Shown here in pieces: positions 36,294-45,151 of a stretch of 64,000 nucleotides of DNA (the stretch's first letter is position 1; each line of letters opens with the position of its first letter). The position numbers and the translations under genes were made by a program. Location: positions 6,414-70,413 of the forward strand of contig CANGYO010000001.1 in assembly GCA_947458095.1 (NCBI GenBank). Direction: 5' to 3'. Source of the DNA: Vampirovibrionales bacterium (GTDB lineage: Bacteria > Cyanobacteriota > Vampirovibrionia > Vampirovibrionales > JAJTHC01). Under the pieces are notes generated by a model that saw only the letters and a program-made list of their open reading frames with translations, was not told where the DNA came from and did no database searches.

Positions 36294-36752
36294 TTGGAAC
36301 CTCTCGCCATGATTAACAGCATTACCCAAAACTATGGTACGCATCAATGGATGTCGACCCAACCTTCGCCAAGCACTACAGACAACAAAGTAGCTGATTG
36401 GGGCGTTTCTGCAAAAAAAACAGAAGAAGCCTCCACAAAAAGAACTGTTGAAACAACACCTATCGCAACGAAGCCTCCAGAAAGTAAGTTAAATCTTTTG
36501 GGGTATAATGGACTCTTAGGGAATAATACCCTAGGTACTTCTTTTACACAGCCACTTGCGTTCAATCCGCCCAAATTAAACACTCCCCAAGCAATAGATA
36601 CATGGAATACCATTCAAGCGAACGCCTTTATGCCTGCAAATCCTAACGATATTCTAAATCCGCAGACCACATCGTTCAACACGACCCCTAACTTAGGAAA
36701 TGGCTCACTCGGCACGAATTTGCTTACGGGTCTATTCAGTAAGCTAACGTAA
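36294..36752 (+). CDS. Hypothetical Asn/Thr-rich low-complexity protein
   Basis: The 152 aa ORF has a biased composition and no recognisable domain. It contains an A8 run in its coding sequence. Confidence 0.3.
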   Translation: MEPLAMINSITQNYGTHQWMSTQPSPSTTDNKVADWGVSAKKTEEASTKRTVETTPIATKPPESKLNLLGYNGLLGNNTLGTSFTQPLAFNPPKLNTPQAIDTWNTIQANAFMPANPNDILNPQTTSFNTTPNLGNGSLGTNLLTGLFSKLT

Positions 36753-36868: not shown

Positions 36869-37360
36869 ATGTCTGCTCTGTCGTCTCAACATAGGTTTGT
36901 AAAATCATCGGATGCCTTGATGACCATTGGCACCCTCGCCAAAGCCTGTGGCGTGACGGTTCGTGCGTTGCGGTATTATGAAGAGCTTCAACTAATTTGT
37001 GCCACCCAGCGTAGCGAAGGGGGCTACCGCCTTTACGATGCATCCGCCCAAAAGCGGATTGCCGCTATTTTGACCTTGCAGGACCTCAACTATTCGCTGG
37101 ACGATATTTTGGAGATACTCGGCAAGGCGTCAGACGGCAATAGCTTGCCCTTGAAGGCTCAACGCATTGAACGTAGTCGCACGTTGTTGGAGCGTCAACA
37201 CCAGTGCTTAAGCGAAAAGCTTGCAAGCCTCACCGCCTTACAGACCGATTTAGCCAAACGCCTTGCGGTGCTTGAAACCCAGTGCACCCCTTGCGAAACC
37301 CATAACCCCGATGCTGGGGCGTGCCAAAGCTGTGAGCATCAAGACACCCACTGGCATTAA
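36869..37360 (+). CDS. MerR-family transcriptional regulator with a Cys-rich C-terminus (CX2CX9CX2C)
   Basis: It has an N-terminal HTH ([26 protein letters not shown]) and a coiled coil, and the C-terminal [19 protein letters not shown]. The start may be the ATG at 36920. It lies directly upstream of sufB. Confidence 0.7.
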
Positions 37361-37386: not shown

Positions 37387-38823
37387 ATGACCAGCACCCT
37401 AGACGTCATTAACGAAGATTATAAATACGGCTTTACCACCGACATGCCCATGGAAACCTTCGCCAAGGGCTTGAATGAAGACGTTATTCGTGCGATTTCA
37501 GCCAAAAAAAATGAGCCTGACTGGATGCTTCAATTTCGCCTAGACGCCTACAAGCAATGGCAAAAAATGGAAGAACCGACTTGGGCAGATGTTGATTACG
37601 ACCCCATTGATTATCAAGCCATTAGCTATTATTCCGCACCGAAGAACTTGCCCAAAAAGCAAAGTTTAGATGAAGTGGATCCTGAATTGTTGGCGACCTT
37701 TGAAAAGTTGGGCATCCCTTTGAATGAGCAAAAAAAACTCGCCAATGTCGCCGTGGATGCGGTCTTTGACAGTGTTTCGATTGCCACGACCTTTAAGAAA
37801 GACCTCGCCAAGCACGGCGTGATTTTCTGTTCCATTTCAGAAGCCCTTGAAGAACATGCGGATCTCGTCAAGCAATACCTTGGATCCGTCGTGCCAGTCA
37901 CCGACAACTACTTTGCTGCTTTGAACGCCGCTGTTTTCACCGACGGTTCCTTTGTCTACATTCCTGAAGGCGTCACCTGCCCCATGGATCTGTCGACCTA
38001 TTTTCGGATTAATACGGAAGAGTCAGGTCAATTTGAACGCACTTTGATTATTGCGGATAAAAACGCCAAAGTCAGCTATTTGGAAGGGTGTACGGCTCCT
38101 GCGTTTAGCACCAAGCAGTTACACGCTGCGGTGGTTGAACTCATTGCCCTTGATGATGCCGAAATTAAGTATTCCACCGTGCAGAACTGGTTTGCGGGCG
38201 ATCCCAAGACAGGGGCAGGCGGGATTTACAATTTTGTGACCAAACGAGCCCATTGCAAAGGCGATCGTAGCCGTGTGTTTTGGACGCAAGTGGAAACAGG
38301 ATCCGCCATTACATGGAAGTACCCCAGTTGCGTGCTAAAAGGCGATGATTCGGTCGGCGAGTTTTACAGCGTGGCACTTACCAACCATTTCCAACAAGCC
38401 GACACTGGCACGAAGATGATTCACATTGGCAAGAACACGAAAAGCCGTATTGTCTCAAAAGGCATTAGTGCAGGGGTTTCGAAGAATTGTTACCGTGGGT
38501 CTGTGGTGATTAAGCCCAAAGCCGAGAATGCTCGTAATTTTACGCAGTGCGATAGCATGTTGATCGGCTCGACCTGTTCAGCGAATACGTACCCTTATAT
38601 CAATGTGGAAAATCCGACGGTGCAGTTGGAACATGAAGCGTCGACCTCCCGTATTAGTGAAGACCAGTTGTTTTACTTTCAAAGTCGTGGTATACCTATG
38701 GAAGAGGCGGTCACGGCGATTGTCAACGGCTTTTGTCAGGATGTCTTTAATGAATTGCCAGCTGAATTTGCCGCCGAAGCCACGAAATTACTTTCTCTCA
38801 AATTAGAAAATAGTGTCGGTTAA
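37387..38823 (+). CDS. sufB: Fe-S cluster assembly protein SufB
   Basis: The 478 aa ORF shows SufB conservation ([34 protein letters not shown]...). Confidence 0.9.
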
Positions 38824-38860
38824 AAAAGTCTCCTCGTATTATATTTAAAGGAAAGCCCCC

Positions 38861-39634
38861 ATGTCCACTCCCATTCTCCAAATCACGGATCTACACGCGA
38901 AAGTCGTCGACGGCCCCACGATCCTCAACGGCATTAGCCTCACCATTAACGCTGGGGAAACCCACGCCATTATGGGACCCAACGGCTCGGGCAAAAGCAC
39001 CTTGAGCAAGATTTTGTCAGGGCATCCCAATTTTGAAGTCATTTCAGGCGAAGTCTTGTTCCTAGGGCAGAACTTGCTTGAACTTGAAGCCGACGAACGA
39101 GCCAGAGCAGGCGTGTTCTTGGCGTTTCAATACCCTGTTGAAATCCCTGGGGTCAACAACGCCGACTTTTTACGCTTGGCTTACAACGCCAAAGAAAAAG
39201 CCCAAGGACGTGAAGAACTCGATGCCGTCGCTTTTAAAGACGTACTAAAAGCCAAGTTACCCATCGTTGAAATGGCGGAAGAATACCTCGATCGTGCCGT
39301 CAACGAAGGCTTTAGTGGTGGCGAAAAGAAACGCAATGAAATCCTGCAAATGGCAGTTTTAGAGCCTCGTTTAGCGGTTTTAGACGAAACCGATTCGGGT
39401 TTGGATATTGATGCCTTGCGTATCGTGGCAGGCGGCGTGAATCAGTTGATGAATCCGCAAAACGCCATGATCGTCGTCACGCACTACCAACGCTTATTGG
39501 ACTACATCGTGCCTGATGTCGTGCATGTTCTCGCCCACGGACGCATCCTCAAAACGGGAGACAAATCCCTTGCCCTTGATCTTGAAAGCCGTGGTTATGA
39601 CTGGTTACTAGAAGAAGCCGGCTTAACTGCTTAG
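38861..39634 (+). CDS. sufC: Fe-S cluster assembly ATPase SufC
   Basis: It has a Walker A (GPNGSGKST), the ABC signature ([13 protein letters not shown]) and a Walker B ([12 protein letters not shown]). Confidence 0.9.
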
Positions 39635-39650: not shown

Positions 39651-40952
39651 ATGTCCGCCATGTGTACGTTAAATCCCCCCGATCTTGAGTTAAGCCCTTT
39701 TGAAGCAGGCATCCAAGACGCCTTTCAAGACTTAGCAACCGATAGCCTCATGTCCTTGCGTCATGCCGCTAAAGCACGTTTTGACGTTCTTGGTTTGCCC
39801 AAACCACGCCGTCAAGAAGCGTGGAAGTATGTGGATGTGCAAGGCTTAAGCCGTCGTAGCTTTAGCCTGCCTCGCCCCAAAGGCGTCGACGAAGCCTTTG
39901 TAGAATGGATTTATCCAAAAGCCTGTCGCTTGTCCATGTTTAACGGTCGAATCTACAATCATGGCACTTGCGGGATGGTGCAACCCTTGGCAGATGCCGT
40001 CATCGCCAACCCCGAACGCTTGGCTCGTTTAACGCACGACGTGCATCAAACAGATGACGCCCTGAGCTTGTTGAACGTCGCTTTAGCTCCCGAACCGTAT
40101 AGCTTGCATGTGCCAGCGGGGAAAACAATGGAGCGTCCTCTTGAAGTGGTGATTCATCACAATAAGGCTTCCAATAGCTTTCCTGCGTTTTACATTGAAC
40201 TAGACGAGAATGCCACAGCGGATGTCCTCATCCGCATTAAAGGCGACAAGCACAGTGTGGGAAGCACTTATGTGCAGGGGTTAATCCATGTAAGCCAAGC
40301 CAAAGGGAGTCGTTTGAATTTGACGGTGTTAAGCAATATCGCTTATGCGGGCTACAATTTCTTCAATACCCAAGCAGTTTTAGCCGAAGATGCTCAACTT
40401 AAGCTTTTTAGCACCGCCTTAGATGCCGAGCATTTCCGCCACCGCATGGATGTCACCCTTGCTGGTGAACGAGCCGATGCCACGCTCAACGGCTTGTCGA
40501 TTCTTTCAGGCCAGAACAAAACGCATATGCACCTTCGTTTGACGCATGCCGTGCCAAACTGCACGTCTAGCCAGCAATTCAAGGCTGCTATTGGGGGTTC
40601 TGCCTTACATGAGTTTGACGGCACGATTTTTGTGTTGAAAGACGCCCAACAAACCGATGCCAAACAGTTGTCTCGTAACTTGTTGTTGTCCGCCAAGGCG
40701 AAAGCCTTTGCTCGACCATGGTTGCAGATTGATGCCGATGATGTGAAATGTTCGCATGGAGCGACGGTGGGTCAGCTCGATGAAGCCCAGCTCTTTTACT
40801 TGCAAAGCCGAGGCATCACCGAAGAGCGTGCGAAAGCCCTGCTCACCCAAGGCTTTTGCGACAGCATGTTGAGCGACACGTATTTGGATGCCCACGTGAA
40901 GCGTTACTTTATGAAGCGTGTGCATTGTGCCTTGGTCGCCGCCACTATATAA
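39651..40952 (+). CDS. sufD: Fe-S cluster assembly protein SufD
   Basis: The 433 aa ORF has a SufB/D-family C-terminal beta-helix and follows sufC. Confidence 0.8.
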   Translation: MSAMCTLNPPDLELSPFEAGIQDAFQDLATDSLMSLRHAAKARFDVLGLPKPRRQEAWKYVDVQGLSRRSFSLPRPKGVDEAFVEWIYPKACRLSMFNGRIYNHGTCGMVQPLADAVIANPERLARLTHDVHQTDDALSLLNVALAPEPYSLHVPAGKTMERPLEVVIHHNKASNSFPAFYIELDENATADVLIRIKGDKHSVGSTYVQGLIHVSQAKGSRLNLTVLSNIAYAGYNFFNTQAVLAEDAQLKLFSTALDAEHFRHRMDVTLAGERADATLNGLSILSGQNKTHMHLRLTHAVPNCTSSQQFKAAIGGSALHEFDGTIFVLKDAQQTDAKQLSRNLLLSAKAKAFARPWLQIDADDVKCSHGATVGQLDEAQLFYLQSRGITEERAKALLTQGFCDSMLSDTYLDAHVKRYFMKRVHCALVAATI

Positions 40953-41005
40953 TCATGGTATGATTTAATAAAGTTCTTTTAAGCAAATAATACAAGGGGA
41001 TTACA

Positions 41006-41620
41006 ATGTATCGTGTTGATCGCAATAATTTCTACGAGAATACTAAAGTAGCTACAATTTATACACCTGAAAAAATGAGTGCGTTGTTATTTGAAATTTT
41101 AAGTCCTCAAATTAGAAACGGGCTTATTTTTGATCCCTGTGTGGGACAAGGGTCTTTACTGAAGCCATGGATGAACGGAGGGTACTCTGTTTTAGGTGTT
41201 GATATTGAAGAGCAAGGCTTTGAAAATACTATTGTAAAAAACTATCTCACTGTTGAAAAAGGTGAGTTAGCAACCCCTTCTTTGGTGATTATGAACCCTC
41301 CATTTAATATTGATGATAAAACAAAGGATTATATTAAAGCCACCTATGGGAGTCGCCCTTTATTACCCGAAATATGGCTGTTGAAAGCGATTGAACTTTT
41401 TGGCAAGAATATCCCTATGGCAATGTTTACACCTTACGGCTTTAGGCTTAATCAAACGGTTAACAGTAAGCGTTGGCAAAGATTCCAGCAAGGGGACTAT
41501 CCTGAAATATCGAGTATTATTAGTTTGCCTAAAGATTTGTTTGAAGGCATTCTGTTTCATAGTGAAGTCTTGATATTTAACGTTAAGGGTCTAAAAGGAC
41601 ATTACTTTTATGATGGCTAA
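41006..41620 (+). CDS. Small gamma-class N6-adenine DNA methyltransferase (R-M island, low GC)
   Basis: Motif I is IFDPCVGQGSLL and motif IV is VIMNPPFN. The local GC (~35%) is much lower than that of the flanking suf genes. Confidence 0.7.
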   Translation: MYRVDRNNFYENTKVATIYTPEKMSALLFEILSPQIRNGLIFDPCVGQGSLLKPWMNGGYSVLGVDIEEQGFENTIVKNYLTVEKGELATPSLVIMNPPFNIDDKTKDYIKATYGSRPLLPEIWLLKAIELFGKNIPMAMFTPYGFRLNQTVNSKRWQRFQQGDYPEISSIISLPKDLFEGILFHSEVLIFNVKGLKGHYFYDG

Positions 41621-42338
41621 GTCAGAAGATTTAAGAAAAAATATAAATCAGCATAAGCCTAAAAATGAAAAATCGAAATTAGATGACAAGCTCATTTATC
41701 AAGCGATGTATGACACAATTGATTATCTAAATCAACGTTTTGAAAAAGCTGATAATTTTAAAGGATATACGCTGAAATTTCAAGACAATTTAAGCTATGA
41801 AGAAATGATTTCCGTTATTAAACGCTCTAATTTAAGAACGGAGTATGAAGCTTTTTTCAGAAACTGTACGATTAAGCCTGACGGTGGTGTTATTGTGCTT
41901 ACACGAAGTAATGATCCCGATTTTTTTAAAATTGTTTTGGTTTCTGAAGTAAAACGTCAAGGCACTAATGATGTTCGTCAAGAAGAAGGTAAGAAAAAAC
42001 AATCTCAGGGCAATGCCATTGAACGTTTAGGTAAAAACCTTACAGGCATTAAAGCAATGTTGAATCACGAAAAAATAACCCCCTTTGTTTGTTTTGGTTG
42101 GGGATGCGATTTTAATCAAAAGTATACAGATGATGATTTTGTCATGGCGAAAATTAGCATGTTAAATGAGTTTTACCCACTCAATAAAATCTATGTCCAT
42201 AAAAAAGATGGCAGTAGTGACCAAAATTATTTTTCGCCTACTTCCATGTTTTTTAGAGAAGAAGCTTGGACTAAAGAAGAGATGTTTGAGATTTTGAAAG
42301 AAGTCGGTGAAACCTCTATTCGATATTACTTATTTTGA
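41610..42338 (+). CDS. EcoRI-family type II restriction endonuclease (recognition site may be GAATTC or a relative such as CAATTG)
   Basis: It has an EcoRI-like catalytic region (IKPDGGVIVLTRSNDPDFFKIVLVSEVKRQG) and GNAIERLGKN. It also has a C-terminal ...EEMFEILKEV block resembling the EcoRI ...KIMFEIMFD block recalled from memory. It overlaps the methyltransferase gene by 11 nt. Confidence 0.7.
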   Translation: MMAKSEDLRKNINQHKPKNEKSKLDDKLIYQAMYDTIDYLNQRFEKADNFKGYTLKFQDNLSYEEMISVIKRSNLRTEYEAFFRNCTIKPDGGVIVLTRSNDPDFFKIVLVSEVKRQGTNDVRQEEGKKKQSQGNAIERLGKNLTGIKAMLNHEKITPFVCFGWGCDFNQKYTDDDFVMAKISMLNEFYPLNKIYVHKKDGSSDQNYFSPTSMFFREEAWTKEEMFEILKEVGETSIRYYLF

Positions 42339-42358
42339 AAGTTAAGGTATTGGAATAT

Positions 42359-43639
42359 ATGATTATTGCAAATCCATCACCCCTCATTGCGGTTGACTCG
42401 TTTTCGGGCGAAAGTCTTACGCCTAACGAAGTCCTCGCCTTGCGTGGAGACTTCCCCATTTTCAAGACCCACGTCAACGGCAAACCCTTGGTGTATCTCG
42501 ACAACGGAGCCACCACGCAGAAGCCTCAAGCCATGATCGGTCGCATTAGTCGCTTTTACGCCGAAGAAAACGGCACCGTGCGTCGAGGGGTGTATCACTT
42601 GACGGCTCAAGCAACCTCTGCTTTTGATGCCGTGCGTGAGCAAGTGGCGGATTTTCTCAACGCCCCCAATGCGGAAGGCGTCGTTTTTGTGCGTGGTTGC
42701 ACCGAAGGCATCAATTTAGTGGCGTTTTCGTATGGACGTGAACACCTCAAAGCGGGCGATGAAATCCTCATCACCGAAATGGAGCATCACGCCAACTTAG
42801 TGCCGTGGCAAGAACTGTCTAAAGATTTAGGCACGGTGCTTAAAATTATTCCCATGAATGATGAAGGCGTGCTGGATTTAGAGGCTTATGCGTCTTTGTT
42901 GTCTGAAAAAACCAAGTTCGTGAGCCTGATTCATGTATCCAACGCCTTAGGCACGGTGAATCCTGTGAAAGAGATGATCCGTCAAGCTCACGCCGTGGGT
43001 GCGAAAGTCCTCATCGACGGGGCTCAATCGACGCCTCATATGAGCGTCGATGTGCAAGACTTAGATTGCGATTTCTTCGTCTTTAGTGGGCATAAGGTCT
43101 ATGCCCCCACAGGCGTAGGCGTGCTATGGGCAAAGCCTGAAATCCTGAATACCATGCGTCCGTATCAAAGTGGAGGCGATATGATTGATGTGGTGACACA
43201 CGCCAAAACCACTTTTTTAGATGGGCATCGGCGTTTTGAAGCAGGCACCCCTGCGATCGCTCAAGTCATCGGGCTAGGGACGTCCTTGTCTTATGTGCAA
43301 GCCATTGGCTTAGACCGTATTGGGCGTTATGAGCAGGCGCTTTTGGCGTATGCGACCGAAGCCCTCGAAAGCATCGAGGGCTTGCGGATTTACGGCAAAG
43401 CCCCTCATAAGGCGGCGGTGATTTCCTTTTTGGTGGGGGACGTGCATCCGCTGGATTTGGGGACGCTCTTGGATTTGGAAGGCGTCGCCATTCGCACGGG
43501 GCATCATTGTGTGCAACCCTTGTTGAAGCATTACAATGTAAGTGCGACGGCTCGGGCGAGCTTTAGCTTTTACAACACCTTTGCCGATGTCGATGTTTTG
43601 GTGTCGGCGTTACGCAAGGCGATCCGTTTGTGCGGCTAG
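42359..43639 (+). CDS. sufS: Cysteine desulfurase SufS
   Basis: It has the PLP-binding SGHKVYAPTGVGVLW and the active-site RTGHHC. An alternative TTG start lies at 42335. Confidence 0.9.
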   Translation: MIIANPSPLIAVDSFSGESLTPNEVLALRGDFPIFKTHVNGKPLVYLDNGATTQKPQAMIGRISRFYAEENGTVRRGVYHLTAQATSAFDAVREQVADFLNAPNAEGVVFVRGCTEGINLVAFSYGREHLKAGDEILITEMEHHANLVPWQELSKDLGTVLKIIPMNDEGVLDLEAYASLLSEKTKFVSLIHVSNALGTVNPVKEMIRQAHAVGAKVLIDGAQSTPHMSVDVQDLDCDFFVFSGHKVYAPTGVGVLWAKPEILNTMRPYQSGGDMIDVVTHAKTTFLDGHRRFEAGTPAIAQVIGLGTSLSYVQAIGLDRIGRYEQALLAYATEALESIEGLRIYGKAPHKAAVISFLVGDVHPLDLGTLLDLEGVAIRTGHHCVQPLLKHYNVSATARASFSFYNTFADVDVLVSALRKAIRLCG

Positions 43640-43716
43640 TTTTATAGCAGGTATTTGGAGATGCAACAAGCCCGACCTGTGTAGCTATTGATTCAACCTT
43701 TTTGAAACTGTAGGGT

Positions 43717-44043
43717 CTAAGCTTGTTTATTTAAAAGAGGGCGTGTTCCACTAAAAGCCTTAGGGTTAGATGCTTCTAGTTGGTAGATAGCCTCAACTAA
43801 TTCTTCAAAACGTTTCTGCGTGGTTTCTGGAATAGAAATGAGGTCTGGATTTTCTGCTGCAAAATCAAGCTTCGCTTTAAGTGAGGTAAGAAATGTCGTG
43901 AATGAATTTTGATATGTTTGAAAATTGTTGTGATCTCCTTCTACCAAGCTTTTTTTTGCTCGCTCTATAAGGCGAAAAGAAAAATCTATATCCGTATTTA
44001 TACCTGATATGAAGGAGGGTACATGTATATGCTGACGAGACAA
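43717..44043 (-). CDS. Hypothetical protein in an AT-rich segment
   Basis: The 108 aa ORF uses a TTG start and has no recognisable domain. Low-GC surroundings extend from 43640 to 44230. Confidence 0.3.
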   Translation of the reverse strand: MSRQHIHVPSFISGINTDIDFSFRLIERAKKSLVEGDHNNFQTYQNSFTTFLTSLKAKLDFAAENPDLISIPETTQKRFEELVEAIYQLEASNPKAFSGTRPLLNKQA

Positions 44044-44100
44044 GGGAGTAACAGCTTTACTTGGAACAAGACCAGAACCTGATCTGTGTGTGTTTAAAGC

Positions 44101-44112
44101 GGGGGGGGGGGG
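44101..44112. repeat. Homopolymeric G12 tract (C12 on the minus strand), about 58 nt upstream of the 43717-44043 ORF
   Basis: The local sequence is gtttaaagc-gggggggggggg-cgagatg. This is a classical slipped-strand mispairing substrate. Confidence 0.8.
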
Positions 44113-44226
44113 CGAGATGTAACGAAGAAATAGACATAAGTAGAATCCTTAACTGCGAATTATGTAATAAGTAAGTAAACTTAAGTGCTTACATTTACAT
44201 AAAAACACCCTCAACCCAAAAAGATG

Positions 44227-44808
44227 CTAGTAGTTTTTAGGCGGAATCACGAGTTCTTGATCCAATTTCAAGGCATCGCTTTTGAGATTATTCGCTTTCT
44301 TCAAACGAGCCACGTAATCAGGCGAATAAGATCCGTAAAACTTGTGAGCAATCCCACCTAAGGTATCGCCACTTTTTACGCTATACATGGTCGCTTTCAC
44401 GGCTTTTTCACCTGTGGGTTCAGCCGTCGGTTCAGCACTCACATTAGGGGACGCTTTTCCCACAACTTGAGGAGCTTTAACCGTTTTAGGAGCTTCTTTG
44501 GTACTTTCTTGAACCACGGTTTGACTCACAGCATCCATCGAAGGGGTTTGAGGGCGTGAACTAAAGACCCAAAAGAACAAGGTCGTCAAAATTAAACCTG
44601 TGAGCAAGCCTGCCACAAAAGTGAGCAAAGGATGATGCTCTTCTTTAATATCGGAAAGCACTTGTGTGTCCGCTGTTTGAGACCACAGTACATCGAGTTC
44701 TTTTTGAGCGGACACAGGGGTACTGCTTTCATTACGCAAGTAAACACCTAAGTTTTCAGAAGGCGTGATATTTTCACTTACAGGGGTTTCTACAGAAGGA
44801 GTCGCCAT
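44227..44808 (-). CDS. LysM domain membrane protein
   Basis: It has a TM helix (LLTFVAGLLTGLILTTLFFWVF) and a C-terminal LysM (YSVKSGDTLGGIAHKFYGSYSPDYVARLKKANNLKSDALKLDQELVIP). Confidence 0.75.
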   Translation of the reverse strand: MATPSVETPVSENITPSENLGVYLRNESSTPVSAQKELDVLWSQTADTQVLSDIKEEHHPLLTFVAGLLTGLILTTLFFWVFSSRPQTPSMDAVSQTVVQESTKEAPKTVKAPQVVGKASPNVSAEPTAEPTGEKAVKATMYSVKSGDTLGGIAHKFYGSYSPDYVARLKKANNLKSDALKLDQELVIPPKNY

Positions 44809-45151
44809 AATGGGTTTCCTTTTTTAATTGAATCCATTTACAAGCAAAACGCAAATGGGATGAGGGGGTAAATCAGTAAACTTAAGTAACCGAAGGTCAC
44901 CATAACGAAAAGAGGGATTCTATAAGAACGCACATCAACGGTTTTTCGGGGTGTGACGGCAAAGAACCTTACAGAAACGGACACTTTTACAAATACAATC
45001 ACCATTATAAGGCAAACATGCAAGACGTGACAAAAATGTGAAGCTATCGTAACAGAAGAGGCAGTTCTTCACGTTTTTTGTTACATTTGTCCCTTGTTTG
45101 TGTGATAATTAGGTTCGAAGACCTAAAAATTATTTAGAGAGAGTTTCACTC

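Follow-up and report, generated by a model that had tools for sequence, protein, structure and literature searches.

A low-GC Type II restriction-modification cassette, probably acquired horizontally, between sufD and sufS of a Vampirovibrionales genome

Analysis of a 64,000-nucleotide (nt) stretch of a Vampirovibrionales genome (assembly GCA_947458095.1, contig CANGYO010000001.1, positions 6,414 to 70,413; the whole stretch is referred to here as the window) located a two-gene restriction-modification (R-M) cassette of low guanine-plus-cytosine (GC) content between sufD and sufS of the suf operon. The cassette encodes a small N6-adenine methyltransferase (M) and a restriction endonuclease (R) of the EcoRI family. 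Both open reading frames (ORFs) are intact and run in the same orientation as the operon, and the locus is laid out as follows (aa, amino acids):

36869..37360, + strand: MerR-family regulator gene directly upstream of sufB, host context (Pfam MerR_1 and MerR)
37387-38823, + strand: sufB, host left flank (Pfam SUFBD_core, NCBIfam)
38861-39634, + strand: sufC, host left flank (Pfam ABC_tran, NCBIfam)
39651-40952, + strand: sufD, host left flank (NCBIfam TIGR01981, 238 bits against a cut-off of 222)
40953..42346, + strand: inserted segment of 1,394 bp with 33.8% GC, delimited by alignment of filled and empty sites
40953..41005, + strand: cassette leader of 53 nt, with an AAGGGGA ribosome-binding site 7 nt before the M start
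41006..41620, + strand: M gene, 204 aa, stand-alone catalytic domain of a gamma-type N6-adenine methyltransferase (Pfam N6_Mtase)
41610..42338, + strand: R gene, 242 aa (241 aa from the ATG at 41613), EcoRI family
42339..42358, + strand: spacer from the R stop to the sufS start, with an AAGG ribosome-binding site as before sufS in empty-site relatives
42359..43639, + strand: sufS, 426 aa, right flank and last gene of the operon (NCBIfam TIGR01979, 560 bits; Pfam Aminotran_5)

The cassette and its empty sites in sister lineages

The inserted segment has the lowest GC content of all 1,394-bp windows in the 64 kb (mean 47.1%, standard deviation 3.1%), lying about 4.3 standard deviations below the mean, which bears out the low-GC two-gene module noticed at this position in a preliminary description of the window. 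In 300-bp windows, GC runs at 0.30-0.38 over 40850-42350 against about 0.47-0.55 in the flanks, and the GC content of third codon positions (GC3) is 0.33 in M and 0.28 in R versus 0.53-0.58 in the suf genes (0.53-0.55 in sufB, sufC and sufD, whose overall GC is 0.47-0.51). The 11-nt overlap of M and R given in the same description is real in the ORFs (41610-41620), and because homologues begin one Met later, the true start of R may lie at 41613, which would leave an 8-nt overlap as in related loci. The start of sufS had been placed at a TTG overlapping the R stop. That TTG (42335) is an artefact, the mechanical start of the ORF, and both the gene call on contig L001 and the empty-site alignment put the sufS start at the ATG at 42359, 20 nt past the R stop and behind its own AAGG ribosome-binding site.

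The window SufD is one of 45 sequences clustered at 90% identity, several of which come from named Vampirovibrionales metagenome-assembled genomes, and contigs encoding four other SufD variants from this cluster were used for the empty-site comparison. SufD proteins of these four sister lineages are 94.9-96.1% identical to that of the window, and DNA identity over the suf genes, compared for two of the lineages, is 88.9-92.5% (91-92.5% over sufB-sufC-sufD and 88.9-92.4% over sufS). The operon, putatively essential, is uninterrupted in relatives, as the idea of an inserted R-M system implied, with a cassette-free sufD-sufS gap of 11-14 nt in four of four sister lineages; the position of the MerR-family regulator gene is likewise kept in all relatives whose contigs were compared. 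When filled and empty sites are aligned, the left break falls directly after the sufD stop codon (...ACTATATAA / TCATGG..., the slash marking the break). The right edge can be narrowed to 42339-42346, just ahead of the sufS ribosome-binding site, and host sequence picks up at the AAGG of that site, 12-13 nt before the sufS ATG (...TTTTGAAAGTTA / AGGTATTGGAATATATG). Both junctions are 100% identical on the separately assembled contigs L001 and L002, and further contigs of the organism carry the cassette proteins unaltered (100% identity).

The window apparently derives from a metagenome-assembled genome, and a low-GC segment in such an assembly could be a chimera. Here this explanation has a vanishingly small probability: the junctions recur at 100% identity on two contigs, one of 50 kb from ENA with 61x coverage and one of 3.6 kb from a separate Logan assembly; the protein has also been recorded on a contig of 123 kb; and the junctions sit exactly at gene boundaries with the sufS ribosome-binding site preserved.

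Given the gap of only 11-14 nt between sufD and sufS in all four sister lineages, the cassette is, on these alignments, a lineage-specific gain, whose composition has not drifted to that of the host. No strain-level empty-site relative was found in the SufD cluster, where the closest SufD is 96.1% identical; a recent gain here means one that postdates the divergence from species-level relatives, which are about 92% identical in nucleotide sequence, and not one at strain level. The opposite history, in which the cassette is ancestral at the site and was precisely deleted in relatives, draws some support from the fact that only species-level relatives (about 92% DNA identity) were compared. It is nonetheless very improbable, as it would require four clean deletions, each restoring an 11-14 nt spacer with a ribosome-binding site, and the GC3 of the cassette (0.28-0.33) has not shifted to the host value (0.53-0.58). 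In addition, the closest homologues of the cassette proteins are found in unrelated phyla, and nesting of the cassette-bearing lineage within empty-site lineages has been shown in part. We therefore favor acquisition over ancestry, and we consider it very likely that a complete two-gene Type II R-M cassette was horizontally acquired by one Vampirovibrionales lineage and inserted precisely, in operon orientation, in the 14-nt spacer between sufD and sufS.

The nuclease and its putative recognition site

Assignment of the 242-aa ORF to the EcoRI family, made earlier from sequence motifs, was upheld by profile and structure comparisons. The protein passes the Pfam EcoRI model PF02963 over residues 23-169 (61.5 bits against a cut-off of 22, E 8.3e-17), matches the PADLOC model REase_II at 55.6 bits, and hits EcoRI chains of the PDB at E 4.5e-10 in phmmer. 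Alignment of the R profile to EcoRI with hhalign gave 98.4% probability over 231 columns; the 277-aa EcoRI sequence used there agrees with the residue numbering of the literature, and its residues 49-175 were independently confirmed by the PDB EcoRI alignment. All five Foldseek matches of the R model to the PDB at E <= 0.001 are EcoRI entries (E 3e-12 to 3e-11, 238-246 columns, template modelling (TM) score 0.58-0.62).

At the residue level, the catalytic D91, E113 and K115 of R align to D91, E111 and K113 of EcoRI (IKPDGG and SEVK versus IKPDGG and AEAK), and G134-N-A-I-E-R139 is identical to GNAIER at EcoRI 140-145. The motifs listed in the preliminary description are thus all present (IKPDGG, SEVKRQG and GNAIER in R, DPCVGQGSLL and NPPF in M). 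In a 13-sequence family sample, the G, N, A, E and R of GNAIER are invariant and the Ile nearly so, and all 69 residues invariant in that sample are found in R, including D91, E113, K115 and GNA-ER. By these residues R is an EcoRI-family member and a PD..ExK nuclease.

With EcoRI and RsrI (PF02963; PDB 1eri, 1ckq and 2oxv), R shares the fold over its whole length, PD..E-x-K, GNAIER and a conserved C-terminal helix (W..EMFEI...ETS.R). It differs from EcoRI in being about 26% identical (25.8% to EcoRI of E. coli plasmids), 35 residues shorter, and part of a separate and populous subfamily of approximately 239 aa, with 735 homologues at E <= 1e-3.

In EcoRI, Asn141, Ala142 and Arg145 contact the inner AT pairs (PMC4081073). 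As these residues are kept in R as N135, A136 and R139, the core target of R is, by alignment, very probably AATT, and the GNA..R motif also fits the AATT-core logic of MunI/MfeI (CAATTG), MluCI/Tsp509I (AATT) and ApoI (RAATTY). The outer G:C pair is read in EcoRI by Met137, Ala138 and Arg200. In R, Met137-Ala138-Ala139 align to Q-S-Q (family consensus Q-A-Q), so that Met137-Ala138 is not conserved, Arg200 lies opposite an alignment gap, and Arg203 lies opposite an invariant Lys181. Because Met137-Ala138 and Arg200 are not conserved, the R site's outer base pair is not readable from this alignment.

An R that is a true isoschizomer of EcoRI or MunI (GAATTC or CAATTG), instead of an enzyme with another outer-base specificity such as AATT or RAATTY, is possible but rather doubtful. 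The identical GNAIER and the whole-length fold match to EcoRI alone speak for it. Against it stand the low identity to E. coli EcoRI, the replacements at Met137-Ala138-Ala139, Arg200 and Arg203, and the lack of MunI among the fold matches at E <= 0.001. EcoRI, MunI and MluCI have been grouped as possibly mosaic relatives (Pingoud et al. 2014, PMC4081073).

Site avoidance was assessed by counting every 4- and 6-bp palindrome, with Markov correction, in the host portion of the window, and again in pooled flanks of homologous loci, where 35 loci with full-length R were compared with 40 that have M alone. Neither GAATTC nor CAATTG shows any special depletion in either set. Published methylomes and enzymes were also considered, namely M.CjeNI, M.Spe19205I and a Spirochaeta orphan for RAATTY and M.Tsp509I for AATT (PMC3526280, PMC7380536, PMC4752239, PMC3287169); their organisms are absent from the 80 genomic M loci described below, and no specificity was assigned by this route.

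The same counts in the host part of the window place CGCG, CCGG, GCGC and GGCC at 0.09-0.17 of Markov expectation (z -10 to -14). AATT is more weakly depleted (0.76), and every other 4-mer palindrome is far less depleted than these four. This pattern suggests long exposure to restriction systems targeting GC-rich 4-mers, or some other compositional constraint.

The methyltransferase and its pairing with the nuclease

M passes the Pfam model PF02384 (N6_Mtase) at 36 bits against a cut-off of 20.4, and no other Pfam match was obtained for it at E <= 0.1. Its motifs follow the order X-I-IV, with IYTP at aa 18-21, DPCVGQG at aa 43-49 and NPPF at aa 97-100, which is that of the gamma class, and the core residues of motifs I and IV are invariant in the family sample. 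Since N6_Mtase is the sole Pfam family matched, M is, at the profile level, not a relative of M.EcoRI; the label of an EcoRI-family R-M system given to the locus earlier fits the nuclease, but not its partner methyltransferase. Other methyltransferases of AATT-core systems are no closer. M.MunI belongs to the beta class and is circularly permuted (PMC4738411), the cloned insert carrying M.Tsp509I measures approximately 1.1 kb as estimated from plasmid sizes (PMC3287169), and neither resembles the gamma-type clade to which the 204-aa M belongs.

This clade is abundant. Homologues of M number 509, mostly of about 204-230 aa; the aligned ones come from distant phyla and share 65-72% identity with the window protein. 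A search of 1.84 billion cluster representatives with the M profile recovered 587 clusters at 50% identity, nearly all of 180-250 aa. The description of 204 aa as unusually short therefore does not hold within the family, where 203-230 aa is usual, although it does hold against DNA methyltransferases generally, as the protein is without a recognition domain. The AlphaFold (AF2) model of M (mean predicted local distance difference test score, pLDDT, 85) consists of one Rossmann domain, and Foldseek superposes it on the catalytic domains of type I HsdM, M.TaqI, PacII M, BsaXI and BpuSI, all of which rely on an additional domain or subunit to recognise sequence. TM scores normalised to the target are 0.15-0.44 for DNA methyltransferases, meaning that M matches the catalytic domains of much longer enzymes. 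With type I HsdM, M.TaqI and PacII M (PF02384) it shares the motif order, NPPF and the Rossmann catalytic domain (Foldseek E 1e-8 to 1e-7, probability 1.0). For recognition, however, HsdM and PacII use an S subunit and M.TaqI a C-terminal domain, whereas M ends at the catalytic domain; no target-recognition domain is seen in the M model and no S-like gene lies in the cassette.

No residue invariant in the family sample is missing from M, which, as far as sequence and model can tell, is a typical member of a clade without a recognition domain and not a truncated longer enzyme. Its N-terminal peptide MYRVDRNNFY, invariant in the family and poorly modelled, is a candidate element for site reading. 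The clade appears to be biochemically uncharacterised, as far as could be found in the searchable literature. One speculative extension, which we regard as unlikely, is that members of the clade are sequence-specific adenine methyltransferases whose catalytic domain itself reads the palindrome, perhaps in dimeric form and aided by MYRVDRNNFY, and that the cassette is in addition wired to the suf (Fe-S stress) promoter. If so, no more minimal methyltransferase that protects against restriction would be known, iron or oxidative stress would alter the host's capacity for restriction, and sufS would place a constraint on loss of the cassette by deletion.

Scanning with the M profile, limited to one genome per species, gave 80 loci. 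An EcoRI-family R lies directly downstream of M on the same strand in 40 of them, in genomes that range over Spirochaetia, Chloroflexota, the candidate phyla radiation (CPR) and Alphaproteobacteria. Of the paired loci, 35 have an essentially full-length R, usually with a short overlap of the M stop and R start, and R is reduced to fragments in the remaining five (L014, L036, L048, L066 and L078). The other 40 loci carry M without a detectable R. Because M and R are adjacent across unrelated genomes, their arrangement identifies them as a cognate Type II R-M pair, while loci with an orphan M or a fragmentary R represent the familiar decay path of R-M systems.

In Treponema phagedenis and on a Paracoccus plasmid, by contrast, the relatives of R (approximately 239 aa) have D12-class methyltransferases as partners; exchange of partners has therefore taken place within the nuclease subfamily. 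In Treponema phagedenis CP031394 (L013 3812-4996), the R homologue is 58% identical and is preceded by a gene for a D12-class (Dam-like, DPPY) methyltransferase that is frameshifted into two ORFs. Barring a sequencing error at the frameshift, the nuclease there would have a defective methyltransferase partner.

The genome of Ca. Phytoplasma australiense (AM422018, 880 kb) holds 13 copies of the mini-methyltransferase gene (L049, L052-L054, L057, L058, L060-L063, L068, L069 and L082). The sole copy followed by an intact 242-aa EcoRI-family R, L049, lies between P-type ATPase and ABC transporter genes. The one orphan copy examined there (L052) stands in the order dnaB, tmk, himA, M, AAA ATPase, which is that of a potential mobile unit.

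Such loci raise the alternative that the window cassette looks intact but is decaying, with M acting as an orphan and R inactive or silenced, the usual end-state of the family. The 40 loci with M and no detectable R, the five with R fragments and the single R gene beside 13 phytoplasma M copies all point that way. R in the window is nevertheless full length, free of frameshifts and in possession of all invariant residues, including the catalytic D, E and K, and the M/R overlap typical of intact pairs is kept. We accordingly judge decay to be improbable and retain the reading of a complete cassette.

Acquisition, expression and surroundings of the cassette

Several observations weigh against reading the locus as a recently acquired and complete R-M cassette. 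In about half of the family loci M is an orphan or R has decayed, and the intact look of R is therefore no proof of activity. No NAATTN site stands out in the avoidance counts, in the host part of the window or in the pooled locus flanks. The AlphaFold model of R is only moderately confident (pLDDT 73), falling below 50 at residues 178-201, and this low-confidence stretch covers the part aligned to the outer-base contacts of EcoRI. The closest homologues are just 66% (R) and 72% (M) identical, so that no donor can be named, and the closest empty-site relatives, only about 92% identical in DNA, bound the word recent loosely. Finally, the insert bears no mark of an insertion mechanism, with neither a target duplication, long or otherwise, nor terminal inverted repeats.

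Neither a recombinase nor any other mobility gene was found in the insert, and matches between its ends and the flanks reach 7-11 nt at best, which is chance level. Three collinear 10-mers shared by the sufD 3' end and the sufS 5' end are also at chance level and do not constitute a repeat signature. Entry by illegitimate recombination, or by homologous exchange with an already-invaded relative, is a possibility. Plasmid and phage vectors were considered and set aside: M has no plasmid match and its match in podophage Lau218 is only 32% identical, while the best plasmid match of R is 34% identical, and no vector was identified.

R-M units have been described as indels between related genomes, often at translation start/stop boundaries with the neighbouring genes intact; Furuta, Abe and Kobayashi (2010, PMC2853133) report a Type II R-M system inserted in an operon-like structure and cite an earlier example. 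The window cassette likewise consists of R-M genes only, carries no mobility gene, and occupies a stop/start boundary between intact genes. The cases emphasised in that study, however, have target duplications of approximately 25-60 bp or flanking inverted repeats, and neither occurs here. Insertion of R-M systems into operon-like clusters is thus already described, and the present case adds a neat if unremarkable instance of a selfish defence module inside an operon. Its value is as a natural example of a minimal R-M system entering an operon at a stop/start boundary without breaking its neighbours, with matched empty sites for comparison, and in drawing attention to an abundant clade of approximately 200-aa DNA methyltransferases that lack a recognition domain and pair with a compact EcoRI-like nuclease. 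How this clade recognises its site, and with what specificity, is of greater interest than the insertion itself. For the host genome, the cassette mainly marks a horizontally acquired defence locus, and nothing fundamental is altered for R-M biology or for SUF.

With respect to expression, no terminator-like element was found on the + strand of the insert, and a promoter scan yielded weak matches only, such as a 9/12 match overlapping the M start, and no convincing cassette promoter. A perfect TATAAT spans the left junction (40948-40953) with a poor -35 element; it was read by eye and is not relied on. Given the lack of a + strand terminator and of a convincing promoter, and the retained sufS ribosome-binding site, the cassette is probably read through from the suf promoter, which would lengthen the transcript by 1.4 kb and leave sufS to be translated from that site. 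The order of M before R with overlapping stop and start suggests translational coupling, with methylation ahead of restriction. As a homodimer, R would act on a palindrome centred on AATT and, by analogy with characterised EcoRI-family enzymes, would cut before AATT, while M, as an AdoMet-dependent enzyme, would methylate an adenine in the same site and so protect host DNA. The cassette may also have a stabilising (addiction) effect.

The sufB-sufC spacer is a second variable intergenic site of the operon in this clade. It measures 37 nt in the window (38824-38860) and in some relatives, and holds a 449-aa ORF in L006/L007 (L006 3849-5198) and a 226-aa ORF in L096/L097 (L096 1518-2198). The 449-aa product is of low complexity, rich in E, K and P, and has no Pfam or PADLOC match; the 226-aa product has no Pfam match on record. 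The two share only the N-terminus MxVQTRMSxLSPxSxQRSGHI, and their GC is about 0.42.

Variation is also seen on either side of the operon. Synteny between sister lineages ends directly after sufS (window 43640-45150 compared with L003, L006, L094 and L096), where other lineages carry either small ORFs followed by rpsR-rpsB-tsf, or a glycosyltransferase (Glycos_transf_N) gene followed by rpoC. Upstream, relatives carry an ORF of 133-154 aa without a Pfam match at the same position between secF and the MerR-family regulator gene as the 152-aa ORF of the window. The corresponding window features are:

36294-36752: low-complexity ORF of 152 aa between secF and the MerR-family regulator gene, no Pfam match
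43717-44043, - strand: low-GC ORF of 108 aa, no Pfam or PADLOC match
44227-44808, - strand: LysM protein gene downstream of sufS, with valS next

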